Part shown: positions 7,461 through 29,945 of the stretch, piece by piece | How positions within the stretch are numbered: the stretch's first letter is position 1 | Layout: every line of letters begins with the position of its first letter | DNA from: a virus | Taxonomy: Duplodnaviria; Heunggongvirae; Uroviricota; Caudoviricetes | Virus record (IMG/VR): IMGVR_UViG_2671181114_000018 | DNA: 29,945 nt | Direction: 5' to 3' (one strand) | The notes under the pieces: model-generated | What the model was told of the DNA's origin: nothing | Databases searched by the model: none | Seen by the model: the letters and a program-made list of their open reading frames with translations, nothing else | Translations under genes and position numbers: made by a program

Positions 7461-8054
7461 TTACAAACCTGCGCTGAATGTCGCGCTTCGGGTTTCCGTC
7501 CCTGCTAACGAAGCCGGATAAACCACATATTCCCCCTGATCCCATCCGGCTCTGATAACCATTTTTTCCGATGTGATCACCTCAAACTGATAACGACGGC
7601 ATGTTCGCCCGTACTGCCGGATTATCTGGATAAGCAGCTGCGTGTTGTCCGCTATCTGGCTGTCTGTCACACGTACCAGGAGCACATCCCAGTCAATACC
7701 CGGCTGACGCTCCCGCAGCTCCACATATCCAATGCCCAGCCGTTCAAAGATGTTGATAAATCCCTCAACGGAACCGGCATCACGCGCATTCACGAAGGCA
7801 AACGCCACCCGTTTGCGGAACAGACTCAATGGCTCACCATCAAAGCGGGTTATGTCCCGGTCATACGCCAGCAGGTTCAGTAATGCCGGTGTGCAGGTCA
7901 GCGGATCAAACTGGTTCAGTGGCCAGGTTATCCAGCCGTAAACCTCCGCCCAGAATCGCCGGGCTGTTTTCAGCAGCTTGTTCGGCTCCCCCTGATTCAT
8001 CCAGGAAGGCAGCACCATCCCGGCCAGCTTTTTCATGAACTCATTCATTCTCAA
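7461..8054 (-). CDS. Baseplate/tail protein (Mu gp48-like, DUF2313 / P2 I-position)
   Basis: 197 aa between the J-like gene and the fibre gene, the conserved position of the P2 gpI / Mu gp48 / YmfQ family. Synteny-based. Confidence 0.5.
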   Translation of the reverse strand: MRMNEFMKKLAGMVLPSWMNQGEPNKLLKTARRFWAEVYGWITWPLNQFDPLTCTPALLNLLAYDRDITRFDGEPLSLFRKRVAFAFVNARDAGSVEGFINIFERLGIGYVELRERQPGIDWDVLLVRVTDSQIADNTQLLIQIIRQYGRTCRRYQFEVITSEKMVIRAGWDQGEYVVYPASLAGTETRSATFSAGL

Positions 8055-9225: not shown

Positions 9226-9551
9226 AAATCCACCTGATAAGAAAGTGTGCCAAAGTCGTATGTACTGGCAGTCACCCAAAGGCGTTTCTGACTTTCTTCA
9301 TTGATTTCAACTGTGCCAGGCACTATGCGTTCATCATTTTCAACCAGTAATTCAAGCTGGGTAAAAATATCTGCCCTCAACGTCGGGCTTCGCTCCGCAA
9401 TCAATTGTGTTGCCAGTCCGCTTTCAATAATGGCGTGCACAATATCCTGCCCGATACTTTTACGGTTATTGCATAATTCAGGCTCATGACCTGCATTCAG
9501 TGAGAAATCACCATTATTAATAAGCAGGTCAATATAAAGAAATTCACTCAC
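9222..9551 (-). CDS. Small baseplate protein (Mu gp46-like / GPW-position)
   Basis: 109 aa directly between the tape measure and the J-like gene, translationally coupled on both sides. Synteny-based. Confidence 0.5.
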   Translation of the reverse strand: MSEFLYIDLLINNGDFSLNAGHEPELCNNRKSIGQDIVHAIIESGLATQLIAERSPTLRADIFTQLELLVENDERIVPGTVEINEESQKRLWVTASTYDFGTLSYQVDL

Positions 9552-11587
9552 GCATTAAGCTCCTGCCATTCCATTAGCTGGGAGGGTGAAAGTGCTTCTT
9601 TGGTATGAAAATGCACTTCACCAATTTTACGGCTGTTATCCGTCACTGATTTAGAGTTACTGCTTATTGTTTTACTGATACCACCGCGATCCACATCCTT
9701 TAACTTTCCACCTGTTGAAAGGGTATTGGCAGTCAATGTTTCACTGGTATTTGCAGTATGGTTGTTCTGTATTAATGAAGGTACCACCCCACCTGTAATT
9801 TTATTTATTTCCGGCGAAACGGTTGTGGACAGGTCAATATTGACGCCCGGAATTTTATTCAGTTTTTCAACAATCCAGTTCCACGACTTCAGAAATCCGC
9901 TTTTAATGGTCTGCCAGACGTTATCAAACAGGGAAACAATACCGCTGGCCATCCCGCTTAATGCCTGTGAGGGTGAGAACCCGGCCAGCAGCGCAATAAA
10001 ACTGTTCCAGCCGTCTTTAATCCACTGCCATGCAGCGGAGAACACGCCGGCAAGCCATTCCACCACGCCCGCCACCGCCGTAAACGCTGCAGTATTCATC
10101 ACCGCCGCTTTCACATCATCCCAGTGTTTAATCAGCAGGTAACAGCCCGCAGCCAGCAGGGCTATCGCCCCGATAACCAGCAGCACCGGCCAGCTCATCA
10201 GATTAATACCAATGCCGGCCATAATCGCCGCCATGCGTACGGCCAGCAGCGTGCCACGAAGGAATTTAAGCGTGATGTTCCATGCCGCGACGGCTTTTGA
10301 GGCAATCCAGACAGTGGCGGTGTATATCTTCGTGACTGAAGTCAGCGTCTTCCAGAGAGCAATCGCGCCCAGCTTAATAAGTTTTGAGACGCCCAGAACG
10401 ATGTTCGCTACCGCGCCGGCAGCAGCAAACCCCAACAACGCCATAGCCGCATAGCCGATAACACGCGCAATGTTGGGAAACAACTGCATCCAGCGGGCAA
10501 AGGTCTGCCCCATATCGGCCAGGCGATTCAGCACCGGATACAGGACGGGGATCAACGTCAGCCCAATGACGGTCTGAATAGACTTAAGGATCTGAACAAA
10601 GCGATCCCACGGTTTCACCAGTTTCCCGGCCATCTCCTGTGTACGCTTCAATCCGTCAGAACCGCCCAGCTCAGTGATATTACGTTGCAGTAAGGCCACA
10701 TTGCCGTAAAGATGTTTCACCACCGCTGAACTGTCACCAAATGCCGCATCCAGCTCCGCCTGGGCTTTCAGGTTCCCTTCCAGGCTTTTGCCATACTTAC
10801 CCTGTAACTTGATCAGCATTTCAGGCATGGACAGCATTTTGCCGGTGGCATCCGTAAAGGACAGCCCCAGCTTTTTACCGCCCTCAATGGCTCCGGTCAT
10901 GAAGCCTTCATAAGCGCTGCTGGCTTCCGTTCCCAGCGTTCGGTTAAGCTGCCCCAGTACGGCCAGTTGTTCATCCAGCCCCACGCCGTAGTTGGTACCC
11001 ACGCCGCGCGCACCTTCCATCAGGTCTTTGATGACGCCCATTTCAGTACCGAAGACCTTGCGCATGTACACCATTTTTCCGGCCAGTTGTTCAGCAAACT
11101 GGACTTTACCCAGCCGTGCCGCCTCGGCGGAAAAGTTGCCGTACATCTGCCCCATAAACTCTGCGGTATCGGCAGATGTTGATTTCAGTGCAAACGCCAG
11201 CGTGTTGGCGACTTTCGTCACCTTCGGCAGTTCATTCCCGGTCAGGCCGGCAATGGCGGTGTTAATACTTTCCGTGGACTGGACAAACTCCACCGCGCTG
11301 GCGCCGTAGGTCATACTGAACCGCAACGCATCACGCTGGACGGCCTTTAAAGCCTGATCATCAATGCCTTTTGCGGCTGCGTCATTCAGCGCGTCATACA
11401 TCTCAATAGCCGGCGACAACGCCCCTTTGATGGCCATCCCTGTGCCGGCTAAAGCCAGCGCACCGCCCCCAATCTGCGTAAAGGCCACTTTCGATTTTTC
11501 AGCAAAGCCTGTAACACTGCTCTGCACCTGCTTTAACGGGCGCGTCAGTTTATCAATCAGGCTTAAGGTAAAATCTAACTGTTTCAT
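9548..11587 (-). CDS. Tail tape measure protein
   Basis: 679 aa, Ala/Gly-rich helical N-half, several hydrophobic segments in the middle (e.g. 'LLVIGAIALLAAGCYLLI'), directly downstream of the frameshifted chaperone. Confidence 0.8.
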   Translation of the reverse strand: MKQLDFTLSLIDKLTRPLKQVQSSVTGFAEKSKVAFTQIGGGALALAGTGMAIKGALSPAIEMYDALNDAAAKGIDDQALKAVQRDALRFSMTYGASAVEFVQSTESINTAIAGLTGNELPKVTKVANTLAFALKSTSADTAEFMGQMYGNFSAEAARLGKVQFAEQLAGKMVYMRKVFGTEMGVIKDLMEGARGVGTNYGVGLDEQLAVLGQLNRTLGTEASSAYEGFMTGAIEGGKKLGLSFTDATGKMLSMPEMLIKLQGKYGKSLEGNLKAQAELDAAFGDSSAVVKHLYGNVALLQRNITELGGSDGLKRTQEMAGKLVKPWDRFVQILKSIQTVIGLTLIPVLYPVLNRLADMGQTFARWMQLFPNIARVIGYAAMALLGFAAAGAVANIVLGVSKLIKLGAIALWKTLTSVTKIYTATVWIASKAVAAWNITLKFLRGTLLAVRMAAIMAGIGINLMSWPVLLVIGAIALLAAGCYLLIKHWDDVKAAVMNTAAFTAVAGVVEWLAGVFSAAWQWIKDGWNSFIALLAGFSPSQALSGMASGIVSLFDNVWQTIKSGFLKSWNWIVEKLNKIPGVNIDLSTTVSPEINKITGGVVPSLIQNNHTANTSETLTANTLSTGGKLKDVDRGGISKTISSNSKSVTDNSRKIGEVHFHTKEALSPSQLMEWQELNA

Positions 11588-12032
11588 CCTGAACCTTTAA
11601 ACGCGGTGCTTATTCCGTTAGCAACCGCTATACGCGTATTTTCCCAGTGGCGATTATCCAGCCAGATAGCGGCGGAAATATCATCCACGGAATCCTGACC
11701 ATGCGGTAAATAATGACGCCGTAATATCAGATATTGTTCGAGTCCGTTCTGTTCAATTGCCCGGACTCGCTTTGTCAGTTTTTTACTTCAATTTCCAGTT
11801 CGGGCGCATAAAGCTCATTAATTTTCCCTGCAAGCTGAAGCGCTGCCCCCGGACGTTTAAGAATATCTTCCAGCGCTTCTTTACATTCTGGTACAACAAT
11901 GCGCATAAGATAACTATGGGCTGGAGCTACTTTATTATCCATCGCCATTTCGTTGATGAATTTATTATAAGCCGTCTGATTTGGTTCAAAGGTAATGTCT
12001 TTTTTACATACAACCAGATTAATTTTTTCCAT
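11584..12032 (-). CDS. Tail assembly chaperone, long form made by programmed -1 ribosomal frameshift (P2 E+E' / lambda G-GT analogue)
   Basis: Minus strand reads gtA AAA AAC tga: perfect X XXY YYZ heptamer (plus 11778-11784) as the last codons. The -1 frame from there is open for about 64 codons across the otherwise ORF-free 11588-11774 gap and stops at TGA (11584-11586) overlapping the tape-measure ATG. Confidence 0.6.
11775..12032 (-). CDS. Tail assembly chaperone, short form (P2 E-like)
   Basis: 85-aa ORF immediately upstream of the tape measure gene, ending '...EIEVKN*' with a slippery heptamer at its 3' end. Confidence 0.6.
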   Translation of the reverse strand: MEKINLVVCKKDITFEPNQTAYNKFINEMAMDNKVAPAHSYLMRIVVPECKEALEDILKRPGAALQLAGKINELYAPELEIEVKN

Positions 12033-16405: not shown

Positions 16406-16459
16406 GGGCGATACGCTGATGCGATCCCCTCCACCGCGCCCGCTTTCGGGTCGGTAGTC

Positions 16460-16669: not shown

Positions 16670-17368
16670 CTATTTTTCAAGCGCCCGCAGACGGGCAGCG
16701 ATACGCTGCAACATCGTGCCAACGCCACATTTAGGGTCGAATCCCTTCGCCTGCTCCAGCAAATCCTTCGCCCGGAGCAATACATCCCTGTCTTCCGTTG
16801 CCGCTGCGCGTGGCTCTCCGTTCTCATCGCGTAGCAGGTGCAGACCGGCAAACTTCACGTATTTGGCCTTAATGACCTCATACACATTCCAGTGCTGCAT
16901 AACGTTTCCCAGCGTGCGGCTGAAATACGGCTCCACATCCTGCCCCTGTGCGGCTTCCGTCTCCGCCCAGGCCAGTACCGTATCGGCCACAAACACCGGG
17001 AACGCACTGCCGAACGCGGCCGGGGTTTCCTGTCCCCGTTCGATGGCCACATCCGCCCAGTCCAGCGCCTGATCAAACTGGCCAGTATCAAACAGCCAGA
17101 CGACACACCAGGCAAAAACGGGATTCTGATGCGTACTGTCACTTTCCAGCCAGGTTTGTGCGGTCGGCATCCAGCGGGGCAACAGCACATCGCGCTTGAA
17201 CTCCATACGCTCTGCACGGTTGCTAATCGCTGCGGCCGCTGCCACATCCTTTTCCAGCGCGGCAATCTGGACATGCAGACTGGTTTCGCTGTCAAGCGAC
17301 TGCTGCTGACGCAGTAACCGCTCCGCCTCTATACGTGCACTGTGTCGCTGTGCCGGTGACAGTTGCAT
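16670..17368 (-). CDS. Terminase endonuclease (small) subunit (P2 M-like)
   Basis: 232 aa immediately downstream of the major capsid gene; order O-N-M-L and size match P2 gpM. Confidence 0.65.
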   Translation of the reverse strand: MQLSPAQRHSARIEAERLLRQQQSLDSETSLHVQIAALEKDVAAAAAISNRAERMEFKRDVLLPRWMPTAQTWLESDSTHQNPVFAWCVVWLFDTGQFDQALDWADVAIERGQETPAAFGSAFPVFVADTVLAWAETEAAQGQDVEPYFSRTLGNVMQHWNVYEVIKAKYVKFAGLHLLRDENGEPRAAATEDRDVLLRAKDLLEQAKGFDPKCGVGTMLQRIAARLRALEK

Positions 17369-19272: not shown

Positions 19273-19415
19273 ATTGCCTCCCTTCCTGCTGCGGTTTTCA
19301 GTATCGCCAATTAAATTAACCGCCGCATTCACTTCATTTCGGATATAAACAATTAGCCGAACACATCAGAAATAAAGCAGGATTTAATAAAGAAGCGCCC
19401 GTGCATAATGTGTGC

Positions 19416-21200
19416 ATGGCTAAATACTCAGAAGAATTAAAAGGCGTTGCGCGGGCGCTTTATTTAAAACGTTATACCCCGCAGGAAATTGCCAGTGAAC
19501 TTAATCTGCCTAACAGACGCATTGTCTATTACTGGGCAGCGAAATATTGCTGGGCGGAATTACTCAGCCACGAATCAACCGAGGACGCATTAAACCGCCG
19601 CATTCAGTCTCTGACATTACGTGAAGGGAAATCCGAGCTGGAGCTGCGGGAGCTGGACAGCCTCGTTTCTCACCTGGTGAAACTGCGAGCACAGCATAAT
19701 AAGCATCAGGAAAAACTGGCAGAAATTAAGCACAGCGAAAGTGATGCGCCGACGTCCCGTCAGTCCGGTGGAGACGAAAAGCCCCGTAAACGTGGCAAGT
19801 ACAAAAAAAATGATATCAGCGGGCTGACGCAGGAAGATTTCGACCGGTTCGCGCTCGAGCACCTTTTCGGCTACCAGAAACACCTTCGCGCCAATCTCAA
19901 TCAGCAAATCAGGAACATCCTGAAAAGTCGCCAGATTGGCGCAACCTGGTATTTCTCAATAGAAGCCTTTGAAAATGCGGTTATGACAGGCGATCCGCAA
20001 ATCTTCCTGTCCGCGTCAAAGGCTCAGGCTGAAGTGTTCCGCAGCTATATCGTCAACATTGCGGAGCAGTATTTCGGCGTGGAGCTGACAGGCAACCCCA
20101 TCCGCCTGTCCAACGGTGCGGAGTTGCGCTTCCTGTCCACCAATAAGAACACCGCCCAGTCATACAGTGGTCATCTGTATTGTGATGAATATTTCTGGGT
20201 ACCCAACTTTGCAAAATTAAACGAAGTGGCCAGCGCAATGGCCACACACGACAAATGGCGCACCACCTACTTTTCCACTCCCAGCAGCAAAACACACCAG
20301 GCTTACCCGTTCTGGACAGGTGAAGAATGGAAGCGCGGCAACAAAAAACGCGCACGCGTGGCGTTTCCAACAGAGAAGGAGCTGCGTGACGGTGGACGGT
20401 TATGTCCTGATGGCCAGTGGCGCTACATCATCACACTGGAAGACGCGATTGCGGGCGGGTTCAATCTGGCCAGCATCGAAAAACTACGTAATCGCTACAA
20501 CCGCGACACTTTCAACATGCTGTACATGTGCGTTTTCGTGGACAGCAAAGACAGCGTTTTTTCGTTCTCCCATGTGGAACGCTGCTGTATTGATCCGGAT
20601 ATCTGGGAGGATCATGACGAAGACCTGCCCCGGCCATTCGGCAATCGTGAAGTATGGGCAGGCTATGACCCGGCTCGCAGCGGCGACACCTCAACCTTTG
20701 TCATTGTCGCCCCGCCGATAGTGGCCGTCGAAAAATTTCGCGTACTACGCGTATTCCACTGGCAGGGAATGAACTGGAAATGGCAGGCGGCACAAATCAA
20801 AAAACTGTTTGGCCAGTACAACATGACTTACATCGGGATTGATATCACCGGGCTGGGGAGTGGTGTCTTTGAAGATGTGCAGCACTTTGCCATGCGTCAG
20901 GCGGTGGCTATCCGCTATGGCGTGGAAACCAAAAACCGCCTGGTGATGAAGATGATCGACGTTATCGAAGACAACCGCGTGGAGTGGGACAAGGAGAAAA
21001 CTGAAATCGCCGCCAGCTTTATGACCATCCGCAGAACGTCCACGGCCAGCGGTAACGCCATGACGTTTGTTGCCGACCGTACAGCTGAAACCGGCCACGC
21101 TGACAGTTTCTGGGCTATCGCCCATGCCATAGACAACGAACCATTACACTTTGAAAACCAGCGCAAATCACGCTGGGGTAACTTAGGGAAAGCAGCATGA
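19416..21200 (+). CDS. Terminase ATPase (large) subunit (P2 P-like)
   Basis: Track ORF 19401-21200 (599 aa); probable start 'MAKYSEELKG' at 19416. Size and position (P then Q, divergent from O-N-M-L) as P2 gpP. Confidence 0.85.
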   Translation: MAKYSEELKGVARALYLKRYTPQEIASELNLPNRRIVYYWAAKYCWAELLSHESTEDALNRRIQSLTLREGKSELELRELDSLVSHLVKLRAQHNKHQEKLAEIKHSESDAPTSRQSGGDEKPRKRGKYKKNDISGLTQEDFDRFALEHLFGYQKHLRANLNQQIRNILKSRQIGATWYFSIEAFENAVMTGDPQIFLSASKAQAEVFRSYIVNIAEQYFGVELTGNPIRLSNGAELRFLSTNKNTAQSYSGHLYCDEYFWVPNFAKLNEVASAMATHDKWRTTYFSTPSSKTHQAYPFWTGEEWKRGNKKRARVAFPTEKELRDGGRLCPDGQWRYIITLEDAIAGGFNLASIEKLRNRYNRDTFNMLYMCVFVDSKDSVFSFSHVERCCIDPDIWEDHDEDLPRPFGNREVWAGYDPARSGDTSTFVIVAPPIVAVEKFRVLRVFHWQGMNWKWQAAQIKKLFGQYNMTYIGIDITGLGSGVFEDVQHFAMRQAVAIRYGVETKNRLVMKMIDVIEDNRVEWDKEKTEIAASFMTIRRTSTASGNAMTFVADRTAETGHADSFWAIAHAIDNEPLHFENQRKSRWGNLGKAA

Positions 21201-22216
21201 AAAAACGGAAATACAGGGAACGCCGCACCGTTACCAAACAACGCCATATGAGCCTTATCACGCTGGGCAAGCCAGAACCCATTCTGACGACCGGCACGAA
21301 CTATACAGACGTCTGGTATGACAATGAGGCGGAACACTGGACGCTCCCGATTGACAGGCTGGCACTGGCACAACTGGTGAACCTGAACGCGCAGCACGGC
21401 GGCGTGCTGTATGCCCGTCGCAATATGGTGACAGCAAATTATGATGGCGGCGGCCTGACACATGAGCAACTGGGCGCGGCCGTATTTGACTGGCTGACGT
21501 TCGGTGATGTGGCCATTCTCAAAGTACGTAACGGCTGGGGGGATGTGGTTGCACTGTACCCGCTGCCGGCGCTCTATACCCGCCAGCGTAAGACCGGGGA
21601 ATTTGTTGTACTTCAGCAGGGTGAACCGGTGATTTATCCGCCTGAAGATATTATTTTTCTCAGGCAGTACGACCCGCAACAGGCTATTTATGGTCTTCCG
21701 GATTACATCAGCGGCATCCACTCCGCCCTGCTCAACGGTGAAGCCACGATTTTTCGCCGGCGTTACTATCACAACGGTGCTCACACGGGCGGTGTGCTCT
21801 ATTCCAATGACCCGAATATGACCGATGAAGTGGAAGAAGAAATTATTCAGAAGCTGGAGCAGTCAAAGGGGATCGGGAATTTCAGCACCATGTTTGTGAA
21901 TATCCCCAAAGGTGATCCGGATGCCATCAAATTTATCCCGATTGGTGATATCAGCGCCAAAGATGAGTTTCAGAACGTGAAAAGCATCAGCGCTCAGGAT
22001 GTACTGACCGCGCACCGTTTCCCGGCCGGTCTGGCCGGAATTATCCCCACGAACGGGGCAGTAATGGGGGATATTGAGAAAGCGGCCAAAACATACCGCA
22101 AAGCGGAGATTTTACCTATTCAGCGCATGTTCACCGCCGCAGTGGAGCAAGAAAGTGATGTACCACCCCACCTGTACCTTAATTTCCTGAAAGACAGTGA
22201 GCTGGAAGGTGATTAA
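21197..22216 (+). CDS. Portal (capsid vertex) protein (P2 Q-like)
   Basis: 339 aa immediately downstream of and overlapping the large terminase gene; size as P2 gpQ. Confidence 0.85.
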   Translation: MKKRKYRERRTVTKQRHMSLITLGKPEPILTTGTNYTDVWYDNEAEHWTLPIDRLALAQLVNLNAQHGGVLYARRNMVTANYDGGGLTHEQLGAAVFDWLTFGDVAILKVRNGWGDVVALYPLPALYTRQRKTGEFVVLQQGEPVIYPPEDIIFLRQYDPQQAIYGLPDYISGIHSALLNGEATIFRRRYYHNGAHTGGVLYSNDPNMTDEVEEEIIQKLEQSKGIGNFSTMFVNIPKGDPDAIKFIPIGDISAKDEFQNVKSISAQDVLTAHRFPAGLAGIIPTNGAVMGDIEKAAKTYRKAEILPIQRMFTAAVEQESDVPPHLYLNFLKDSELEGD

Positions 22217-22269
22217 TGTCCGCAAAAAGGCTAAAATATCATCGTTTTCCAACTTCCGGAGCGATGGAT

Positions 22270-22545
22270 ATGCGGGTAATGAAGGTTTACTGTCCGGTAT
22301 GTGAGGCAAGGGCTGTTATCAAAAAAACAGCCAGAAAACACAAGGAGCTGTCTGATTTATATTGCGCCTGTACTGATGTTGAATGCGGTCACACTTTTGT
22401 GATGAATATGACGTTCTCACATACCATCAGCCCCAGCGCCAAATCCAGCGATGCGTTGATCGCCACTATCTGTAACAGCCTTGATATGCAGCAAAAACAG
22501 CTGATGCTCAAATTTTTAAGTCAGGATGCTACCGCAGCAGCATAG
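22270..22545 (+). CDS. ogr: Ogr/Delta-family zinc-finger late transcription activator
   Basis: Track ORF starts at 22216 overlapping the Q stop; likely start at Met 'MRVMKVYCPVC' (22270, GGAG about 9 nt upstream) or 'MKVYCPVC' (22279). Cys pattern CPVC...YCACTDVECGHTF parallels P2 Ogr CPLC...HQCQNVNCSATF as I recall it. Confidence 0.7.
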   Translation: MRVMKVYCPVCEARAVIKKTARKHKELSDLYCACTDVECGHTFVMNMTFSHTISPSAKSSDALIATICNSLDMQQKQLMLKFLSQDATAAA

Positions 22546-22574
22546 AAAAAGGCACCGTTACAGGTGCCTTTTTT
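22546..22574. terminator. Bidirectional rho-independent terminator between ogr-like gene and the convergent cargo gene
   Basis: aaaaa-ggcacc-gttaca-ggtgcc-tttttt: 6-bp GC stem flanked by an A-run and a T-run, immediately after the ogr stop and 17 nt from the stop of the minus-strand cargo gene. Confidence 0.6.
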
Positions 22575-22590
22575 CATAGACACTGAGCAA

Positions 22591-23598
22591 TTATTTGCTT
22601 TTATTTCCATCATTATTAGGATGATTTACAGGAGTAAGGCCTGAGGCTACATCATTAGCAGTTTGAAGACTGGTAGGAATCAGACCGGGCCAATTTGCCC
22701 CATTTAGTCCCCAATTGAGTTTAGCTAAATTCTCACCAGGCCAGGTTGATTTCGCAGAATTTAAATCAAGTCCCTGAAGCCCCTGAAGCCCCTGAACCCC
22801 CTGAAACCCCAGAGAACCTAAAGTCGGCCTGGCAAAAGGCAGTGTATTCTTAGATATTTCCTGATTAATATCGTCTAATTTATTTTGATTCGCTATAATT
22901 TTGGCATTCAAATCCATCAATTCTTTTTCTTTTAATTCCAATTCCGTCCTCACCTTCGAAATTGAGTCCATAGCATTATAATAAGAATTGGTAACTGACT
23001 GAACCTCTTTTCCCTTTTCCTTTATTAACTCATTAATATCCCTGAGCTTTACCTGAGCGTTATTATATTTATCTTCAAGCGCGTTTGTATCATATTCGAT
23101 AGCTTTATTTGCCTTTTCAGCATTTAACCTCGCTTTTGCGTCTGCATATTCATACTCGACATTTTTATTTATTTCGTCTATTTTTAAATCAAGAGCACTC
23201 TGTTTTCTCTTACTATCATTTGTACTCTTTTTCGTAAGCACTCCATTTTGTATTACATCAACAACATATGAGATAAAAGGAGTGCCAACTACAAATATAA
23301 TTGAGGCAACAAATGGATACCAAAACGTATGAGTATGAGGGATGCTAATTCCAAAAAAGACACTATTTGATGGTAACGCCTTTATTTTTTCAATACGTTG
23401 TTCTATGTCCAGACTGAACGAGAATAAGAGTAATAGAGTGCGGTCCCAGTTACAGAGAATCCAAGAGGATATGAAGCATAGAAAAAATGGATTTGATAAC
23501 CGTTGATTAACAGCTTTCACTACCGGTTCAGTTGTAACTGATTTTACCGCATCCAAAGCTTTATCTATTGTTTCGCTCATTTTAGGAGTATCAACCAT
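22591..23598 (-). CDS. Accessory membrane-anchored coiled-coil protein with C-terminal collagen-like G-x-Q repeats (candidate superinfection-exclusion/defence cargo)
   Basis: 335-aa ORF (start may be the internal Met 'MSETIDK'). Hydrophobic N-terminal segments ('FFLCFISSWILC', 'VASIIFVVGTPFISYVV'), long K/E-rich heptad region, C-terminal 'GFQGVQGLQGLQGL'. Visibly AT-rich; sits between the replication gene and ogr/portal, the position of tin/old in P2. Confidence 0.5.
   Translation of the reverse strand: MVDTPKMSETIDKALDAVKSVTTEPVVKAVNQRLSNPFFLCFISSWILCNWDRTLLLLFSFSLDIEQRIEKIKALPSNSVFFGISIPHTHTFWYPFVASIIFVVGTPFISYVVDVIQNGVLTKKSTNDSKRKQSALDLKIDEINKNVEYEYADAKARLNAEKANKAIEYDTNALEDKYNNAQVKLRDINELIKEKGKEVQSVTNSYYNAMDSISKVRTELELKEKELMDLNAKIIANQNKLDDINQEISKNTLPFARPTLGSLGFQGVQGLQGLQGLDLNSAKSTWPGENLAKLNWGLNGANWPGLIPTSLQTANDVASGLTPVNHPNNDGNKSK
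22772..22807. repeat. In-frame tandem repeat, 4 units of 9 bp (ccctgaagc x2, ccctgaacc, ccctgaaac) inside the cargo gene
   Basis: Read directly from the plus strand; on the minus strand the units encode the G-L/F/V-Q triplets of the collagen-like tail. Confidence 0.9.
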
Positions 23599-23714
23599 TA
23601 TTTTTAAACAAAGTTATTGATAAATGAATAATATCATACTACTAGAAAACTGTAACATCACGACTTCCTTCATGATGTCACAGTTTTTAGCTATAACTGA
23701 GAGATATAAAGTAG

Positions 23715-26369
23715 TTAATCTCGTTTAAAAATCCAGCATCGGAATGTATCCGGCATCCGTTGCATATCCCCTTTACCACGGTTATGGCGCTCACTAACTG
23801 CGCTGCGCGTGGTGCTTTGTCTGATGAACCGACGTTCATTACCGTTTTTAAGCAGCTTTTTGATTTCCGTTAAAGTGAACGGAATCCGCTGCCGGTGTGC
23901 TGCTGCGACTTCTTCCATATGATTGAAATTAATTGCAATTTCATTTTCATCTGATGAGTGATTGACGCCATAGGGTGCCAGTTCATCCAGGTAATCAAAC
24001 AGTTCCCAAAACTCCTGCACCATCGGGTGATCCTTTTTAAGCGCCTGACAACGTTCAATAGCCAGCGCGGTGATGGCTTCGCGAGTTTTTTCTATGCGTT
24101 CAACCGGTACCGGCACAACAAGCGCAAGCGCCTCCAGCAAACCCACAAGCTGCGCGTGATTCTTTGCAATACGGATATGGCGAATACTACTGTTAGATTC
24201 CAGCGCATTCCTGGCGCGTTCGTATCCCTTACCGAACGTCTGCATGATTTCTTTCTCACGCATGGTGGCCAGTAGTGTGAATCCCGATACCTGGCTAACA
24301 GGGAGTTGTTCCAGCCGCTCCGCAGCGTGGCGCGTCTGAATAGACTGCCCGCGCTTGTCGGTATAGATATGGATAATACGCTCCAGAAACGCCTTGCTGC
24401 CGTCTGTATCAGCGTTCTGCGCAATCACAATACTGCCCCTGAATGGCGGTTCGTATGTTTCGTTATTGTTGGACTTTATCCCCACAGCACGGGAAGCGCG
24501 GCCGTTATACAATGATTTCAGTTCATCCCAGTCAAAAGCACGTTGCTTGGCGTTATCCGTTGTGCGGTCGCCTTCGATTAACACAACCGGCAGGTTGCCG
24601 ACCTGGGCAAAGTTGCGCCCACGCGCTGCGGCCGTGGACTTAGAAGGATCAAAACCTTCATATTCTTCACGGCCGGCGAGCTTCCACAGAAATTCAATCA
24701 GTGTAGATTTACCTGTCCCCGGTTCACCCACGATTTCCAGAAACGGGAATGACTTATCGCGCTCCCGGATTTGTTCGGCAAAAAGCGACCCCAGCCAGAA
24801 TGCTAGCGCCACGTACCCCTTTTCACCAAATGCCGTCCAGATATCGTCAATCCAGCCCGTGGTAAATTCATTCAGCTTTGGATTCAGATCCAGCGATGGT
24901 GTCAGGCTCAGGCTTTTTACACTGGCGTGATTGATTTCAAAATAGTCTTCATCGTTCATCTCATACAGCCGGCCATCGCACACGGCCACACGGTTAAACA
25001 GCCACGCTGAATAATCTTTGTTGTAGCCGATAAAGTTCTGTGTCTTAACCTCTTTTATTTCAGGAAGCCGCATCTGGATGAACTTATCCAGTTGCTTGGT
25101 GCTGCCGGTGTATACCGCCCCTTTGGCGATATGCAGCAAACGTTTCTTAAACTCGGCGGAGCTGGTGAGCTGGTTCGCCGTGAAGGTATCCTTCACCGCT
25201 GGCCGGTTCGGCATGTTGACCTTAACGTAATACCAGGACTCGTCAGTAGGTTCAGAACGCTGGAAATAGAGCGGAGTCAGCCAGCAGTTAGCTATTTCTG
25301 TCACGCCGCCAGATTCTTTCACCGCACGTTCTTTGGCTTCCCAGTCCTGGATAACTTCGGTACCGGTATTACTTATGCGCTCATAGGCTCGCATGTACCT
25401 GTCCAGATCCAGTTCAAACCAGAACATGCGGGAATTATGTTCAAAATAGAACGAATGCCACTCATTATGCTGATGCATGAGCAGCGCTTTTTCAGTCGGA
25501 CTTTTCGCCAGCAGAATATCGCCATAGTAGCGATAATTTTTGATGTCCGATTTACTGAACCGGCCACGCAACAACAAGTCATTCCAGTCCAGACAGGAGG
25601 ATGATTTCACCGGCTGCGCCGCACGAACTTTCCAGCCGGCATCCTCACTACGTGCAGCAAATGCCAGCGTGTGCTTTGTGCCGGCCTTATCGCCGTCAAA
25701 TGCCCATACAAGGCGTGGGCGCGGTTTTTCGCCCAGTTCTTTGGCCAGCGTATCCAGTGCGGCCAGAGGGTAGTTGTTACTGCTCAGTGTGGCAACTGCG
25801 GGTAAACCCGCCTGGCAAAGACTCAGCGCATTAAATATCCCCTCAGTGATCCAGATTTCATTCACTTCCAGCAGGTTGACAGAAGGTGGTACCCACCAAT
25901 GGCCAACATAACTCCCTTTAATATTGGCTTTTTGCTTACCAAAGCGTTGGGGCTGGTCAATAATGCGCTCCCACGTCGCACCACATGCCAGCTTAAATTT
26001 GACTGTTGCCGATCCCATGCCATCTTTAACAAACGCGCCCTGGGTGAAAATGCCTTTCAGTGGTTCGGTATCCAGCCCTCTGGCCTCACGCAGATACGCC
26101 TCAGCAGCTGCGTGTGGGGTTTCAGGAGTGTCCTGATACCGTTTAGACCAGTCCTCAAAAATATCCGGGTACAGCTCTTTAACAACGACCTGATGGCCGC
26201 AGTTATTTTCGCGACCACACTTCAGAATCCAGGGCTTATCTATGCTGGTGAATAATTCGCGCTTACGACACTTAGGGCATACACCCTGCTGCAAATACTT
26301 ATCCCGCTCTTTAAACTCAAAATCCTGAACAAGACGGCGCACAACGTCCTGTTGTATCGTTGCGTTCAT
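23715..26369 (-). CDS. Replicative primase-helicase, P4 alpha-type (zinc-binding primase + D5-like SF3 helicase)
   Basis: Track ORF 23715-26405 (896 aa); probable start 'MNATIQQ' (26369). N-terminal zinc-ribbon Cys pairs (CPKC...CGRENNCGH), Walker A 'GEPGTGKST' in the helicase part; size and domain order resemble P4 alpha. Confidence 0.8.
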   Translation of the reverse strand: MNATIQQDVVRRLVQDFEFKERDKYLQQGVCPKCRKRELFTSIDKPWILKCGRENNCGHQVVVKELYPDIFEDWSKRYQDTPETPHAAAEAYLREARGLDTEPLKGIFTQGAFVKDGMGSATVKFKLACGATWERIIDQPQRFGKQKANIKGSYVGHWWVPPSVNLLEVNEIWITEGIFNALSLCQAGLPAVATLSSNNYPLAALDTLAKELGEKPRPRLVWAFDGDKAGTKHTLAFAARSEDAGWKVRAAQPVKSSSCLDWNDLLLRGRFSKSDIKNYRYYGDILLAKSPTEKALLMHQHNEWHSFYFEHNSRMFWFELDLDRYMRAYERISNTGTEVIQDWEAKERAVKESGGVTEIANCWLTPLYFQRSEPTDESWYYVKVNMPNRPAVKDTFTANQLTSSAEFKKRLLHIAKGAVYTGSTKQLDKFIQMRLPEIKEVKTQNFIGYNKDYSAWLFNRVAVCDGRLYEMNDEDYFEINHASVKSLSLTPSLDLNPKLNEFTTGWIDDIWTAFGEKGYVALAFWLGSLFAEQIRERDKSFPFLEIVGEPGTGKSTLIEFLWKLAGREEYEGFDPSKSTAAARGRNFAQVGNLPVVLIEGDRTTDNAKQRAFDWDELKSLYNGRASRAVGIKSNNNETYEPPFRGSIVIAQNADTDGSKAFLERIIHIYTDKRGQSIQTRHAAERLEQLPVSQVSGFTLLATMREKEIMQTFGKGYERARNALESNSSIRHIRIAKNHAQLVGLLEALALVVPVPVERIEKTREAITALAIERCQALKKDHPMVQEFWELFDYLDELAPYGVNHSSDENEIAINFNHMEEVAAAHRQRIPFTLTEIKKLLKNGNERRFIRQSTTRSAVSERHNRGKGDMQRMPDTFRCWIFKRD

Positions 26370-26408
26370 ATATAATCCATGTGTGAAATGATGAATAAAA
26401 GGCAAAAA

Positions 26409-26627
26409 CTATATTCTGTACTGCTTGTTATATCTTTCATGCGTCATTAACTCCCAGCTTCTGCCCTTATCCTTACTAAGCAAACGCCAGCGATAGGAGA
26501 CATGAACAGAGAAATAATGATTTGGTTTTATAACCTGATATATCTTTTTGCCGTTGTAATATTCTGTCAGCGCTGAAAATGCCTTGTTAATGACACTTTC
26601 ACTTGCATGAGAGGTCACTTTCAGCAT
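26409..26627 (-). CDS. Hypothetical early protein
   Basis: 72-aa ORF immediately upstream of the primase-helicase gene in the same operon; AT-rich; no motif recognised. Confidence 0.35.
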   Translation of the reverse strand: MLKVTSHASESVINKAFSALTEYYNGKKIYQVIKPNHYFSVHVSYRWRLLSKDKGRSWELMTHERYNKQYRI

Positions 26628-26629: not shown

Positions 26630-27199
26630 TTATTTCACACTGGCTATTTTAACGAGATAAGTCCAGACGTAAGACACTAGTTTAGCCTGATAAATAGCGT
26701 CATATAGTGCATGGTGCGGTGTACCTTCAAATTTAATAATATTTTTGATGTTCAAACCTAAATCTTTGGCCAGCGCATTTATCGTCCTGACATCCCGGTC
26801 ATTCCAGTAATTCCACATCGGGCTTAACAAGCCTACCTTATTTGCAGCATGGCGGAGGATAACGTTATCAAACGACGCTCCATTACCCCAAACCTGTAAA
26901 TGATGTGCATCAGTGAGTTCACTGATAAAGTGGAAAAGGTCAGAAATGGCCGTATCCAGCGGACAATTCGCATCATTAATAATCTCGCTCCTTGCTTCGG
27001 AGGACTGACGCAGCCACCACAGAACTGTATCGGCTCCCATAGTGCAGTCGTAATCAACGCTACTTGCAAGACTGACACGGCGATAGAAAGTTTCCCCCAT
27101 TTCACCCGTTTCCGGATTAAATAATACAGCGCCAATAGCGGTAATTGCTGCCGTTGGTTTGTTATCCATTGTTTCAAGATCAATCATTAAATGTTTCAT
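26630..27199 (-). CDS. 3'-5' exonuclease (DnaQ-like fold)
   Basis: 189 aa beginning 'MKHLMIDLETMDNKPTAAITAIGAV...', an Exo I-type motif (D-x-E); later 'HHALYDA' resembles the Exo III motif. Common in P2-like early operons. Confidence 0.65.
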   Translation of the reverse strand: MKHLMIDLETMDNKPTAAITAIGAVLFNPETGEMGETFYRRVSLASSVDYDCTMGADTVLWWLRQSSEARSEIINDANCPLDTAISDLFHFISELTDAHHLQVWGNGASFDNVILRHAANKVGLLSPMWNYWNDRDVRTINALAKDLGLNIKNIIKFEGTPHHALYDAIYQAKLVSYVWTYLVKIASVK

Positions 27200-27208
27200 A
27201 TCGGTTCC

Positions 27209-27544
27209 TTAACGTTGGGAAGCTGCAACAGGTTTTAGATGGGAGTTATTTATTCTTAATGCGTTAGTCGCCAGAGACATAAGACCTGAAATATTGTTTT
27301 CGGTTGGGATGTTTCCACCGAACACCATAAGCGTGATTTTATGAAGTTCCTCAAAATCTTCACTGTCATTATTAAAACGAGCAGTAGAGGTTATACCTTC
27401 AAGACATTTTGCAAGCTGAATGTTTAATTCCATTAACTGCAAACCATCGCTATGAACAGAGAACGTTTCTTTATCAATGGCTTTAGCCTGAGCGTGATAA
27501 TTTTGCAACAGGCTGCGTATGAGAGTCGCGTATTTAGTTTTCAT
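27209..27544 (-). CDS. Hypothetical early protein
   Basis: Track ORF 27209-27577; likely start at internal Met 'MKTKYATLIR' (27544), just after the cox stop. No motif recognised. Confidence 0.35.
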   Translation of the reverse strand: MKTKYATLIRSLLQNYHAQAKAIDKETFSVHSDGLQLMELNIQLAKCLEGITSTARFNNDSEDFEELHKITLMVFGGNIPTENNISGLMSLATNALRINNSHLKPVAASQR

Positions 27545-27816
27545 CGTGGTTCTCCCAAACCCAGCCACATTAACCACCCATCCCTAATTTCCTTCGGGCG
27601 GCTCTCATACGCTAATTTCATTCCGTTGTTCCAAGCAGGAAGATAAATCCAATATTCTCCAGCTCGACCAGAGGTGGATTGCGGGTCTGTCATTTCAACA
27701 ATAGGTAATTTCCCTTTTTCAATCATCCCCTTTACAGCTCGCTCCGATTTTCCAATGAGCCGAGCGAATTCCTGATAGGGGACAGCATCGCTGGTTAGAA
27801 CAATTTGCTTAGTCAT
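27541..27816 (-). CDS. cox: Cox-like excisionase / early-promoter regulator
   Basis: 91 aa, first gene of the early operon, divergent from C. Length and sequence closely resemble P2 Cox as I recall it ('...IPYQEFAKLIGKS...GRAGEYW.YLPAWNNG...'). From memory. Confidence 0.75.
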   Translation of the reverse strand: MTKQIVLTSDAVPYQEFARLIGKSERAVKGMIEKGKLPIVEMTDPQSTSGRAGEYWIYLPAWNNGMKLAYESRPKEIRDGWLMWLGLGEPR

Positions 27817-27933
27817 TTCAAGCCCTCTCGCGGTTCTGAAATTGCCTTTAATGGCTTATAGTGTCCTCTGATGTTCAGTTTTAAACATCAAACAATCTAC
27901 ATCTAAATCAAATACTATTGAGATCTAAACACC
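27817..27933. promoter_or_regulatory. Immunity switch region between cox and C (early and repressor promoters with operator-like repeats)
   Basis: 117-bp AT-rich intergenic region between divergent genes. Direct repeats ATCTAAA at 27901-27907 and 27923-27929 (22-bp spacing) and palindrome tgatgtt-N8-aacatca (27869-27890). Promoter elements not individually assigned. Confidence 0.5.
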
Positions 27934-28233
27934 ATGTCAAACACGATAGGCGAAAAAATAGTACTAATTAGAAAGTCTGAATACCTAAGTCGACAGCAAC
28001 TAGCTGATATATCTGGCATTCCTTATGGGACTCTTAGTTATTACGAAAGCGGTCGTTCTACCCCTCCGACTGACGTTATGATGAAAATCCTCCAAACACC
28101 GCAGTTCACTAAATACACCCTATGGTTTATGACTGACCAAATCTCGCCAGAATCCGGTCAGATCGCGCCGGCTCTCGCACACTTTGGGCAAGATGCAACA
28201 ACCTCGCAGCCCTCAGACCAAAAGACTGGCTAA
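27934..28233 (+). CDS. C: Immunity repressor C (P2 C-type)
   Basis: 99 aa; 'MSNTIGEKIVLIRKSEYLSRQQLADISGIPYGTLSYYESGRSTPPTDVMMKILQTPQFTKYTLWFMTDQISPESGQIAPALAHFGQ' is near-identical to P2 C as I recall it, same length. Confidence 0.9.
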   Translation: MSNTIGEKIVLIRKSEYLSRQQLADISGIPYGTLSYYESGRSTPPTDVMMKILQTPQFTKYTLWFMTDQISPESGQIAPALAHFGQDATTSQPSDQKTG

Positions 28234-28348
28234 CCATTTACCGCGAATACATGCACCACAAGTGCATGCTACTGGCAGCTAAATTTTGCACCAGACATTA
28301 CAAAGAGTTAGGAACGAGAAGAGAACGAACCCATCGGAGGGCTTTCTT

Positions 28349-29362
28349 ATGACAGTTAAGAAACTCGATGATGGTCGGTATGAAGTGGATATCAGACCTG
28401 CCGGGCGCAACGGAAAGCGCATCCGCAGGAAGTTCGACAAAAAAAGCGAGGCTATCGCTTTCGAAAAACACACGCAGTACAACCACCACAACAAAGAATG
28501 GCTTTCGAAGCCGACAGACAAGCGGCGTCTGTCAGAGCTAACGGCTATATGGTGGGAGTTGAAAGGAAAGCACGAGGAACACGGAAAATCTAATCTTGGG
28601 AAAATTGAAATATTTACCCGGATAACTGATGACCCCTGTGCGTTCCAGATAACGAAAGCACTTATCAGCCAGTACAGCGCTACCCGCAGAAGCCAGGGTA
28701 TAAAGCCATCAAGCATTAACCGGGATTTAACCTGCATAAGTGGCATGTTCACCGCATTAATTGAGGCTGAATTGTTCTTCGGTGATCACCCGATACGCGG
28801 TACGAAAAGACTGAAAGAACAGAAGCCGGAAACCGGCTATCTGACACAGGATGAAATTAGCTTGTTGCTTTCGCAACTGGACGGAGACAACAAGAAGATT
28901 GCGATTCTTTGTCTTAGTACCGGCGCAAGATGGGGTGAAGCCGCGCGGCTGAAAGCGGAGAACGTGATCCATAACCGCTGTACGTTTGTTAAAACCAAAA
29001 CGAACAAACCACGCACTGTGCCAATTTCTGACGAGGTGGCAAATATGATCGCCAACAACAAGCGAGGCTTTCTTTTTCCGGATGCAAACTATCCAGCATT
29101 CAGACGGTTGATGAAGGAACTGAAACCTGATCTTCCGGCCGGACAAGCAACCCACGCATTGCGTCACAGCTTCGCAACCCATTTCATGATTAACGGTGGG
29201 AGCATCATCACGCTGCAACGTATCCTTGGCCATTCGCGAATTGAGCAAACTATGGTCTACGCACACTTTGCCCCGGAATACTTGCAGGACGCGATCGCCC
29301 TCAATCCGTTACGTGGAGGAATTGAGGTTCAGAGTGTCCACACAGTGTCCACAGACGAGTAA
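28349..29362 (+). CDS. int: Tyrosine integrase (P2 Int-type)
   Basis: Track ORF starts at 28286 with TTG; real start is Met 'MTVKKLDDGRYEVDIRPAGRNGKRIRRKF' at 28349 with GGAGGG upstream. Catalytic C-terminal 'HALRHSFATHFMINGGSIITLQRILGHSRIEQTMVYAHF' (R..H-x-x-R...Y). Downstream of C as in P2. Confidence 0.9.
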   Translation: MTVKKLDDGRYEVDIRPAGRNGKRIRRKFDKKSEAIAFEKHTQYNHHNKEWLSKPTDKRRLSELTAIWWELKGKHEEHGKSNLGKIEIFTRITDDPCAFQITKALISQYSATRRSQGIKPSSINRDLTCISGMFTALIEAELFFGDHPIRGTKRLKEQKPETGYLTQDEISLLLSQLDGDNKKIAILCLSTGARWGEAARLKAENVIHNRCTFVKTKTNKPRTVPISDEVANMIANNKRGFLFPDANYPAFRRLMKELKPDLPAGQATHALRHSFATHFMINGGSIITLQRILGHSRIEQTMVYAHFAPEYLQDAIALNPLRGGIEVQSVHTVSTDE

Positions 29363-29446
29363 CTAAATATGGCTTTCAGTGGTCTTGTGTGCCGCGCAAA
29401 CCCGCATTGCACCGTTGAAAGCCCCTATTGTAAGGGTACATAAACG

Positions 29447-29469
29447 CCCTTACACGGGCTTATTTTTTT
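29447..29469. other. Phage attachment-site core (prophage right junction), P2-type core
   Basis: cccttacacgggcttattttttt is the reverse complement of the P2 att core AAAAAATAAGCCCGTGTAAGGG as I remember it; about 85 bp downstream of int, within a hairpin (gtaaggg...cccttac) plus T-run. Confidence 0.6.
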
Positions 29470-29627
29470 ATGCATAAGCCCTATCTCTGGTAACCGTCTT
29501 CCATTGACCACATCGATAGAATCCTCCTTCATAGCACGATGCCTTTCACTTATCGGCATCGTGCTCCCACAAGTTCCGGCTACGCACAGCCAGAACGCGC
29601 ATATTTGACGCTTACCAAAAAATATTC

Positions 29628-29945
29628 TCACTCTCCACATTTGAATGTCAGACGAGCGACACCATGTAATCCTACACCTTCTGTCTTCAGCTCAACTATT
29701 TGCATTTTTTTGCCCTGAGTAACACAGAAATGAGTTGCATCATTTTTTACTATATTTTCTGCACCAGATATTCTACCCCTGGCTAAAGAAGCTTCGGCTT
29801 CGGTGTAGTATTGGTTATCGAGTTTACGCTGAATATTACTTTTATATGCAAGACCAAATTTACCGATACTTGTCTCATCATTATGCACAGCACAACCAGA
29901 CATAATAAAAATACTAATTAATGATATAGCAGCTATCTTTTTCAT
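29628..29945 (-). CDS. Small lipoprotein (probably flanking, non-phage gene)
   Basis: 105 aa starting at the window edge; signal peptide with lipobox 'IMSGC' (MKKIAAISLISIFIMSGCAV). AT-rich; outside the att core. Confidence 0.55.
   Translation of the reverse strand: MKKIAAISLISIFIMSGCAVHNDETSIGKFGLAYKSNIQRKLDNQYYTEAEASLARGRISGAENIVKNDATHFCVTQGKKMQIVELKTEGVGLHGVARLTFKCGE

Follow-up and report, generated by a model that had tools for sequence, protein, structure and literature searches.

A predicted cos site beside the last tail gene, not the portal, in an E. coli prophage of the HP1/ESSI-2 branch of Peduoviridae

Results

The packaging site of this prophage is very probably a cohesive-end (cos) site at positions 2183-2198, GGCGGGTGCGGTGTAG, which lies on the attP/int side, 183 nt past the end of the last tail gene, rather than at the replication/portal junction. 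All coordinates refer to the window, by which we mean the whole stretch of 29,945 bp that was analysed. Since the virion-end data come from relatives of the prophage, we infer by homology that cutting takes place here.

Judged from its sequence, the window represents an E. coli prophage, one that falls within the HP1/K139/phiO18P/ESSI-2 branch of Peduoviridae. It encodes a gpM-type terminase small subunit (16670-17368, minus strand; phrog_74, E=4e-70), a gpP-type terminase large subunit (19401-21200, plus strand; Pfam Terminase_6N, Terminase_6C and Terminase_5) and a gpQ-type portal protein (21197-22216, plus strand; Pfam Phage_portal), a set common to the entire family. The traits of the HP1 branch are a portal and terminase closest to the HP1/K139/ESSI-2 type, an ogr-like gene after Q, and cox/cI/int at the opposite end. 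The nearest nucleotide relatives of the portal/ogr region are ESSI2_ev239 (82%), YenM324, ESSI-2, phiO18P, HP2, K139, PV94 and F108, and the same comparison gave no match to P2 or 186. The last tail gene (2382-4085, minus strand; phrog_2258, E=2e-277) is a homologue of HP1 orf35 and K139 orf39, annotated as "baseplate protein". The left end of the prophage falls outside the window, and an ARAGORN search for tRNA or tmRNA genes that might mark att was negative.

The predicted cohesive-end core (cosN-like, plus strand) was assigned by homology to the genome ends of relatives. It is found once in the window, 183 nt past the baseplate gene stop at 2382, as a G-rich 16-mer, GGCGGGnGnGGnnnAG, bordered by GCA and YGC and identical at 16/16 positions to ESSI-2 and YenM324. 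An inverted repeat (I22) encloses it, with the left arm ACGAAAACCGC at 2171-2181 and the right arm GCCGTTTTCGT at 2200-2210 (both plus strand, 91% complementary), and the dyad axis of this repeat, 2190.5, is the exact midpoint of the 16-nt core. Among 137 distinct relatives, bases that lie 9-11 and 13-19 nt to the left and right of the axis are for the most part complementary. The predicted nicks would fall between 2182 and 2183 on the top strand and between 2198 and 2199 on the bottom strand, leaving 16-nt 5' overhangs; within the window, the one feature that points to a 5'-protruding overhang of this length is the dyad axis.

Towards the tail gene, the core is followed by two direct TTTCGTC repeats (2205-2211 and 2225-2231, plus strand), 20 nt apart, which are candidate binding sites for the gpM-type terminase subunit. 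The paired repeats tend to co-vary in relatives, as TTTTGTC/TTTTGTC (n=33), TTTCGTC/TTTCGTC (n=12) or TTTGGTC/TTTGGCC (n=6). The int side carries a conserved block (2047-2161, plus strand; repeats D8 and D15) with two copies of AAAAACTGAAATC (2047-2059 and 2149-2161), an inverted ATTTCAGTT at 2079-2087 and a conserved CCAAAGCCCCAGCGCTGGCGCGG at 2100-2122. About 30 nt left of the core, the motif AAACTGAAAA is present in ESSI-2 and in most of the 103 IMG/VR contigs whose left flank is of the family type. The Rho-independent terminator of the tail operon (2351-2371, minus strand), formed by an 8-bp stem with 6 GC pairs and a T-tract, sits between the baseplate gene and cos. Small ORFs at 1845-2006 and 1991-2287, along with two that are annotated over the cos region of ev239, were dismissed as spurious, since the pattern of conservation in this DNA is non-coding. 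A second match to the ESSI-2 core, with 2 mismatches (16429-16443, minus strand), was not accepted: it falls in the 54-nt gap upstream of the gpL-like gene, partly coincides with a likely ribosome-binding site, and has neither the GCA/YGC borders nor any flanking motif.

The core coincides with the genome ends of close relatives. The terminal repeat of the Cronobacter phage ESSI-2 record (15 nt, not 16) is made up of the last 15 nt of the core; the record begins and finishes with GCGGGTGCGGTGTAG, following the convention by which the 19-mer is duplicated in the P2 record. The virion-derived coliphage assemblies ev015, ev040, ev129 and ev239 terminate inside the core, where one side of the break reads ...GCAGGCGGGTGC or ...GCAGGCG and the other GTAGCGCC... 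or GTGTAGCGCC...; these tagmentation-based contig ends are imprecise, being scattered over core positions 3-13. Nextera adapters directly abut the core breaks in three of the four (ev015, ev040 and ev129). By comparison, the virion-derived assemblies of five relatives run unbroken across the portal-ogr-replication junction. Two record ends were set aside. The YenM324 record has prophage coordinates, starting in a tRNA-like att sequence and with the core internal at 27803, and its ends were rejected as cos; nt 1-112 of the ev239 record are a copy of its positions 5096-5207 and were regarded as assembly junk.

Conservation was assessed at the loci of 74 relatives gathered via the orf35 protein alone (77-100% amino acid identity), independently of the core motif. 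In 69 of them the core follows downstream of the orf35 homologue, with no more than 1 mismatch, and across 62 distinct sequences the 16-mer is invariant while the outer flanks vary. In the window, neither the core nor its two flanks departs from the consensus of the relatives. Among the contigs from a separate exact-motif scan of IMG/VR, 103 have a left flank of the family type, and in 82 of these the orf35 homologue lies right of the core, at a median distance of 197 nt.

The original prediction had expected cos between the replication genes and portal Q, which is true of P2 and 186 and does not hold for the HP1/ESSI-2 branch. Its observation that the interval 22217-23714 lacks a P2/186-type core was borne out: the 19-nt core GGCG(A/T)GGCGGGGAAAGCA(C/T), searched as the pattern GGCGNGGCGGGGAAAGCA with up to 3 mismatches, had 0 matches there on either strand. 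The degenerate search that it had proposed for the whole prophage gave the same result across the entire 29,945-bp window, on both strands; as only 0.19 matches would be expected by chance, the absence is statistically unremarkable. The core search did not find the ESSI-2-type core within 22217-23714 either. The missing P2-type cos is ordinary for the HP1/ESSI-2 branch of P2-like phages, because the normal place of cos in this branch is after the last tail gene. With regard to the hedges of the original prediction, a site located elsewhere agrees with the core at 2183-2198, about 20 kb from the place searched, and a diverged site agrees with its 11/19 ungapped identity to the P2 core, while the suggestion that a site in the interval had been overlooked fell away, there being nothing present to miss.

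The interval is without a packaging role, and comprises a gene for a late activator, a terminator shared between two genes and an exchangeable accessory cassette, in keeping with the ogr-like gene, terminator, cargo gene and 116-bp spacer that the original prediction had listed. The Ogr/Delta-type zinc-finger late activator (22216-22545, plus strand; Pfam Ogr_Delta, E=1e-15) starts on the last base of the portal gene (21197-22216), and an ogr-like gene also follows Q directly in ESSI-2, YenM324, K139 and phiO18P. Next comes a bidirectional hairpin with A/T tracts (22546-22573; centroid -17 kcal/mol, z=-5.0), which is a terminator common to the ogr-like gene and the cargo gene. A simple terminator scan did not pick up this hairpin, we think probably because stem extension consumes the T-tract; folding confirmed it. 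Homology to the E. coli NT1F10 prophage passes through the hairpin and ends at 22574.

The cargo ORF (22591-23598, minus strand; phrog_4780, function unknown) has a GC content of 33-40%, against about 50% in the neighbouring genes. Its 335-aa protein has two predicted membrane helices and a coiled coil, and matched no Pfam family; matches to PADLOC LmuB and NCBIfam Rad50 lie within the coiled-coil stretch, far under any cut-off, and were not taken as homology. Upstream of the ORF is an AT-rich spacer of exactly 116 bp (23599-23714) with promoter-like hexamers, including a promoter-like site on the minus strand (23656-23628). Homology to related prophages breaks at 22574 and restarts only at 23727, so that the replaceable accessory cassette (22575-23726, minus strand) takes in the cargo ORF, the spacer and the final 12 nt of the primase ORF (23715-23726). 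Relatives bear different genes at this position, and the segment is not conserved; the cassette is not a packaging element.

Discussion

A P2-like cos lying inside 22546-23714, diverged past recognition, would occupy the same gene junction as the cos of P2 and 186, and an ogr-cos neighbourhood does exist in satellite-like elements, where the same core follows an ogr/delta-like gene by about 340 nt. Nevertheless, we regard this as extremely improbable. Non-coding DNA in that segment amounts to the 45-bp gap that holds the terminator hairpin and the 116-bp AT-rich spacer; the spacer is part of the cassette absent from close relatives, nowhere in the portal/replication junction of ev239 does non-coding DNA exceed 53 bp, the assemblies of the five relatives are continuous there and break at the other site, and neither type of core matches. 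Packaging by a headful or terminal-redundancy mechanism, which would need no cohesive-end site, is highly improbable, even though K139, with a closely related terminase, is reported, in a statement cited in PMC3986222, to possess ends that are terminally redundant and not cohesive. A single 16-nt stretch contains the ends of four independent assemblies of close relatives, ESSI-2 has its short exact terminal repeat at the core, the core aligns with experimentally determined 16-nt cos ends and is invariant while its surroundings drift, and K139 itself has a related motif at the equivalent place. As K139 belongs to the branch, end structure would not be uniform across it, if that cited report is followed.

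It is also very unlikely that the prophage has become defective, with a relic out of use at 2183-2198. In favour of this, the left end that would show whether the prophage is intact and able to excise lies outside the window, and the related contig L061 has the same cos beside a prophage that has apparently lost its tail genes. Against it, core and flanks agree exactly with the consensus of the relatives, and the ORFs for packaging, head, tail, lysis and regulation are all full length in the window and follow the ev239 order.

With a cos at 2183-2198, the following sequence of events can be proposed. After excision and replication, the gpM/gpP-type terminase would recognise the conserved flanks of the core, that is, the inverted repeat 2171-2181/2200-2210, the TTTCGTC pair at 2205-2231 and the AAACTGAAA block at 2047-2161. 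It would then nick the strands at points 16 nt from each other, placed symmetrically around 2190.5, to give 5'-protruding 16-nt cohesive ends.

The same core and left-flank motif were seen in about 10 IMG/VR contigs without an adjoining tail gene. These tail-less modules (e.g. L017, L082 and L136) have the order primase-helicase, Ogr/Delta zinc-finger gene, cos, 1-2 cargo genes and P4-type integrase. It is quite possible, if short of probable, that they are P4-like satellites with an ESSI-2/phiO18P-type cos and, given that cos type, that they parasitise helpers of the HP1 branch rather than P2. A variable accessory-gene region beside cos at the HP1-branch position, between cos and attP, fits such a satellite reading, as does the old replication/portal junction, still a cargo slot without cos. 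Closeness to cos may not create such cargo hotspots, since that junction is a cargo slot where cos is absent.

The finding can be explained without new biology and matters mainly for annotation. If cos is annotated by position ("next to Q") or by the P2 19-mer, it is missed across the whole HP1/ESSI-2 branch, and such misses may lead to prophages being wrongly called packaging-defective. For the enterobacterial members of the branch, GGCGGGTGCGGTGTAG downstream of an orf35-type baseplate gene is a usable cos marker, which predicts virion genome ends, reveals cos-adjacent accessory genes, and also serves the search for satellites that use HP1/ESSI-2-branch phages as helpers.

Both the location and the sequence type of the site are already known. 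The cos of HP1/HP2 and PhiCTX adjoins attP, unlike that of P2, which is placed after the portal (Lavigne et al. 2009, PMC2771037). The closest counterparts are ESSI-2, ev239 (Evevirus), ev015, ev040 and ev129 (Quadragintavirus) and vB_YenM_324, in which the 16-nt core and its flanks GCA and YGCCGTTT are identical to those of the window. In ESSI-2-like phages the core also lies about 183 nt past the baseplate gene, with the AAACTGAAA block on the same side; in YenM324 one extra gene intervenes and the core is farther away. The differences are in the outer flanks, ACGAAAAC/GTTTTCGT with TTTCGTC repeats in the subgroup of the window and ev239 against CCAAAAC/GTTTTTGT with TTTTGTC in ESSI-2, and in the replication module, which has a toprim primase in the window and ev239 and a gpA-type nickase in ESSI-2 and YenM324.

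In phiO18P, PV94 and HP1, cos is found between the last tail gene and attP/int, as in the window. The phiO18P record has cosL at 1-16, cosR at 33970-33985 and the end of the baseplate gene at 33770, while the HP1 record has cosL at 1-9, attP at 251-694, int at 698-1711 and the end of orf35 192 nt before the right end; the baseplate-gene-to-cos distance is thus 183 nt in the window and in ESSI-2, 192 nt in HP1 and 199 nt in phiO18P. The cores of phiO18P, GGCGGGAGCGGATGAG, and of PV94, GGCGGGTGAGGAAGAG, which stands at the end of the PV94 record and for which 16-nt 5' overhangs were established by run-off sequencing (PMC3986222), align with the window core without gaps at 12/16 identical positions each; like it, they begin with GGCGGG, end with AG and have the same GCA/YGC borders, and they differ at four positions. 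The HP1 core is more diverged (GGTGGGGAAGGA...), and its record annotates cosL only as 1-9; no cos annotation was found in the records of K139, HP2 and PV94. The repeats on the tail-gene side are of the (C)CGTG type in HP1, phiO18P and K139, in contrast to TTTCGTC in the window.

P2, 186 and P4 share with the window a P2-family terminase and portal and a G-rich, asymmetric core that starts with GGCG and is preceded by a AAAACCGC-like sequence. Their cos is the 19-nt GGCGAGGCGGGGAAAGCAC, whereas in the window, where the 11/19 ungapped identity to the P2 record spans 2183-2201, the predicted overhang is 16 nt and not 19. The local geometry of the window is P2-like, with the core, about 165-185 nt, a terminator and a convergent late gene stop. 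In the P2 record, cosL is at 1-19 and the Q stop at 187, and the tQ terminator between Q and cos has its counterpart at 2351-2371, between baseplate gene and cos. The window site is a relative of the P2 cos that has diverged and been relocated. It occupies the tail/attP junction and not, as in P2, the replication/portal junction, and the remaining circular gene order is the same; P2 has ogr at the tail/attP junction and the window has its ogr-like gene at the P2 cos place, so that cos and ogr are in effect swapped.

A P2-family prophage adjoining yegR

The window is a P2-family (Peduoviridae) prophage. The nearest nucleotide relatives of its portal/ogr region are Escherichia phage ESSI2_ev239 (82%), Yersinia vB_YenM_324 and Cronobacter ESSI-2, followed by other ESSI-2-like coliphages and Salmonella SW3/SW5, and more distantly by Aeromonas phiO18P, Haemophilus HP2, Vibrio K139/kappa/PV94 and Pasteurella F108; P2 and 186 are not among the nucleotide relatives of this region. 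The gene order is that of ev239 throughout. Host homology begins 6 nt past the int stop codon, and the DNA from 29368, to the right of this stop, is the E. coli yegR region, present at 99% identity in almost every complete E. coli genome, the prophage directly adjoining yegR (window 29363-29945). Because this host DNA follows the integrase stop, the element is an E. coli prophage with its right end just past int; the left end lies beyond the window start. E. coli K-12 carries a P2 remnant (ogrK, yegZ) at the same locus, which may therefore be a site used repeatedly by P2-family phages.

The portal/replication junction lacks a P2-type cos

The junction comprises the genes for the terminase large subunit (19401-21200, + strand), the portal (21197-22216, +) and an Ogr/Delta zinc-finger protein (22216-22545, +), a strong hairpin with adjoining A and T tracts (22546-22573), a low-GC cargo ORF (22591-23598, −), an AT-rich spacer of 116 bp (23599-23714) and the gene of an 896-aa toprim primase (23715-26405, −), whose 3' end borders the spacer. 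The P2/186 cos pattern GGCGNGGCGGGGAAAGCA has no match at up to 3 mismatches in the whole window, an absence that is statistically uninformative by itself, since 0.19 chance matches are expected. As the pattern is unmatched anywhere, the original prediction was correct that the interval 22217-23714 contains no recognisable P2-type cos. Its reservation that a site there might have been missed can be dropped, as the cargo ORF and spacer form a replaceable cassette: homology to the closest E. coli prophages (e.g. NT1F10) covers the ogr-like gene and the hairpin, ends at 22574 and restarts only at 23727, within the primase gene.

The spacer contains promoter-like hexamers for the cargo gene, whose product combines two predicted membrane helices with a long coiled coil and a low-complexity tail and belongs to phrog_4780, a family without assigned function. 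At the same junction NT1F10 has a different gene (239 aa), ev239 has two small genes and no more than 53 bp of non-coding DNA, and ESSI-2 and YenM324 have a small unannotated ORF with an upstream LexA-box-like CTGT-N8-ACAG. This ORF, of about 60 codons, lies on the opposite strand between the ogr-like and replication genes (ESSI-2, L006 4290-4530; YenM324, L007 4300-4530), preceded by CTGTACATATAAACAG in ESSI-2 and CTGTATGTTTATACAG in YenM324, both read by eye, and is reminiscent of tum, the SOS-controlled antirepressor of phage 186. A second LexA-box-like sequence, also read by eye, is found in ESSI-2 near 28400 (L012, about 28100-28420). In the window, the primase gene and a 3'-5' exonuclease gene flank a 72-aa ORF with a ParE-like toxin domain (26409-26627, −; Pfam PF24732, E=1e-16).

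A predicted cohesive-end site downstream of the last tail gene

The expectation that cos lies between the replication genes and Q stands for the P2/186 branch (P2 record: cosL 1-19, Q stop at 187) but does not extend to the branch of HP1, K139, phiO18P, PV94 and the ESSI-2-like phages, because record annotation and published work place cos elsewhere, near att/int and past the baseplate gene. HP1 is annotated with cosL at 1-9, attP at 251-694 and int at 698-1711, with 192 nt between the end of its last tail gene, orf35 ('baseplate protein'), and the right genome end; in phiO18P, whose two termini are annotated as 16-nt cohesive ends, a tRNA-like att lies at 481-564 and int at 609-1661, and the baseplate gene stops 199 nt short of cosR. 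Lavigne et al. describe the cos of HP1/HP2 and PhiCTX as adjoining attP, not the portal-gene end as in P2 (PMC2771037). Both the location and the sequence type of cos are already documented for this branch. For one member, K139, terminally redundant ends have been reported (cited in PMC3986222).

In the window, the orf35 homologue (phrog_2258; 2382-4085, −) is followed by a terminator (2351-2371) and then by ...ACGAAAACCGCA GGCGGGTGCGGTGTAG CGCCGTTTTCGTCAC..., with the 16-mer at 2183-2198 (+). We identify this 16-mer as the predicted cohesive-end site on four independent lines, namely ESSI-2 termini, assembly breaks, determined ends and conservation, which agrees with the suggestion that the packaging site might be located elsewhere.

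The ESSI-2 record carries GCGGGTGCGGTGTAG at both its start and its end, the convention of the P2 record, which has its 19-mer at both ends. The genomes of ev015, ev040, ev129 and ev239 were sequenced from phage isolates (PMC6969025), and all four assemblies are broken inside the core stretch. On one side the contigs end in ...GCAGGCGGGTGC (ev015, ev040), ...GCAGGCG (ev129) or ...GCAGGCGGGGGC (ev239), and on the other they start with GTAGCGCC... (ev015, ev129), GTGTAGCGCC... (ev040) or GGTGCGGTGTAG... (ev239); none of these ends reaches beyond the 16-mer on either side. Nextera adapter lies directly beside breaks in ev015, ev040 and ev129, and all four records are uninterrupted across the portal-ogr-replication junction. 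In the same orientation, the annotated cohesive end of phiO18P (GGCGGGAGCGGATGAG) and the PV94 record end (GGCGGGTGAGGAAGAG) are each identical to the window core at 12/16 positions and share its frame, with GCA before and YGC after the core. For PV94, run-off sequencing gave 16-nt 5' overhangs (PMC3986222).

With the orf35 protein alone we retrieved 80 IMG/VR loci (77-100% aa identity), 74 of them extending 260 nt or more downstream of the gene. The DNA downstream of the orf35 homologue contains GGCGGGTGCGGTGTAG(C/T)GC, with no more than one mismatch, in 69 of these 74, at about 180-190 nt, or at 500-850 nt where an extra gene intervenes. Across 62 distinct sequences there is essentially no variation in the 16-mer and some 10 nt to either side, and the outer flanks are variable. 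A separate exact-match scan of IMG/VR for the core gave at least 120 loci; among the matches listed, 103 share the wider context, and the orf35 homologue lies to the right of the core in 82 of these (median distance 197 nt).

The public RefSeq records of the four coliphages retain Nextera adapter, at the ends in ev239 (NC_049392; 29127-29203), ev129 (1-43, 30879-30927) and ev015 (1-48) and internally in ev040 (29625-29665). In the ev239 record the opening 112 nt (1-112) repeat its positions 5096-5207.

Anatomy of the site and proposed cutting

The core itself is asymmetric and is surrounded by an inverted repeat (2171-2181 and 2200-2210), whose dyad axis at 2190.5 is the exact midpoint of the 16-mer. 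Among 137 distinct relatives, the two halves mostly pair at positions 9-11 and 13-19 from the axis, and some compensatory replacements of A-T by G-C occur. Two TTTCGTC repeats, spaced 20 nt apart (2205 and 2225), lie on the tail-gene side, and the copies at these positions tend to vary jointly among relatives; on the int side, a conserved block (2047-2161) holds two copies of AAAAACTGAAATC, one inverted copy and a GC-rich conserved segment. By homology, the core flanks would be recognition sites for a gpM/gpP-type terminase, and the exact nicks and 5' polarity are likewise predicted from homology; the centred dyad fits symmetric nicking at 2182/2183 (top strand) and 2198/2199 (bottom strand).

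The cos-to-int region and other contexts of the core

The accessory genes between cos and attP/int (window 1-1365, −; ev239 27190-28293; ev040 28468-30523; ev015 28696-30448; YenM324 28228-29056) differ in every relative, encoding an O-acetyltransferase, a serine acetyltransferase together with an abortive-infection protein, or hypothetical proteins. A cargo region therefore adjoins the relocated cos, besides the slot at the replication/portal junction. In the window it contains a 454-aa ORF with weak PADLOC PDC-S15 matches (E=4e-9).

In window 1440-1730 more than 15 GTGAYGG units (AAAACCATCACAA / TTGTGACGGTTTT) are densely clustered, direct and inverted, with arms of up to 27 nt at 89% complementarity. 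The cluster is conserved in ev239 (28380-28680), and both carriers have the toprim primase. None was seen by eye in the ESSI-2 cos-to-int or YenM324 cos-to-record-end regions, both phages having a gpA-type replication protein. The cluster may serve the primase replicon as an iteron-type origin.

At least about 10 IMG/VR contigs among the matches listed have the exact ESSI-2-type core and left-flank motif without an adjoining tail gene. They encode a primase-helicase (Zn_Ribbon_Prim, Toprim_3, DUF927) and an Ogr/Delta gene, with cos about 340 nt further on, then one or two cargo genes and a P4-type integrase. In L017 the core is at 8250-8264 (−), the primase at 9233-11920, Ogr_Delta at 8604-8942, the cargo at 6635-8260 and the integrase at 5400-6638; the others are L082, L136, L052/L053/L083/L126, L055, L056 and L026/L127. 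These contigs may be P4-like satellites using the cos of HP1-branch (ESSI-2-like) helpers, not that of P2. In another contig, L061 (core at 2014, motif on the plus strand), the window-type cos is followed within about 100 nt by an apparent short tail-gene remnant, capsid, terminase and portal, as judged from N-terminal sequences inspected by eye. No homologue of orf35 was detected near its core; the contig looks like a relative that has lost most of its tail genes.

Comparison with the P2 cos

With both oriented alike, the P2 sequence is ...AAAACCGCCCCGTGAAGCGGGCG GGCGAGGCGGGGAAAGCAC TGCGCGC..., compared with ...GAAAACCGCA GGCGGGTGCGGTGTAGCGC CGTTTTC... in the window, and 11 of the 19 positions of the P2 19-mer are identical without gaps, which bears out the suggestion that the site might be diverged. 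In both phages a convergent late gene, Q in P2 and the baseplate one in the window, has its 3' end about 165-185 nt from the core, which points towards it across an intervening terminator. The window site has the appearance of a P2 cos homologue that has diverged, at another junction of an otherwise collinear circular map, the positions of cos and ogr being swapped between the two phages.
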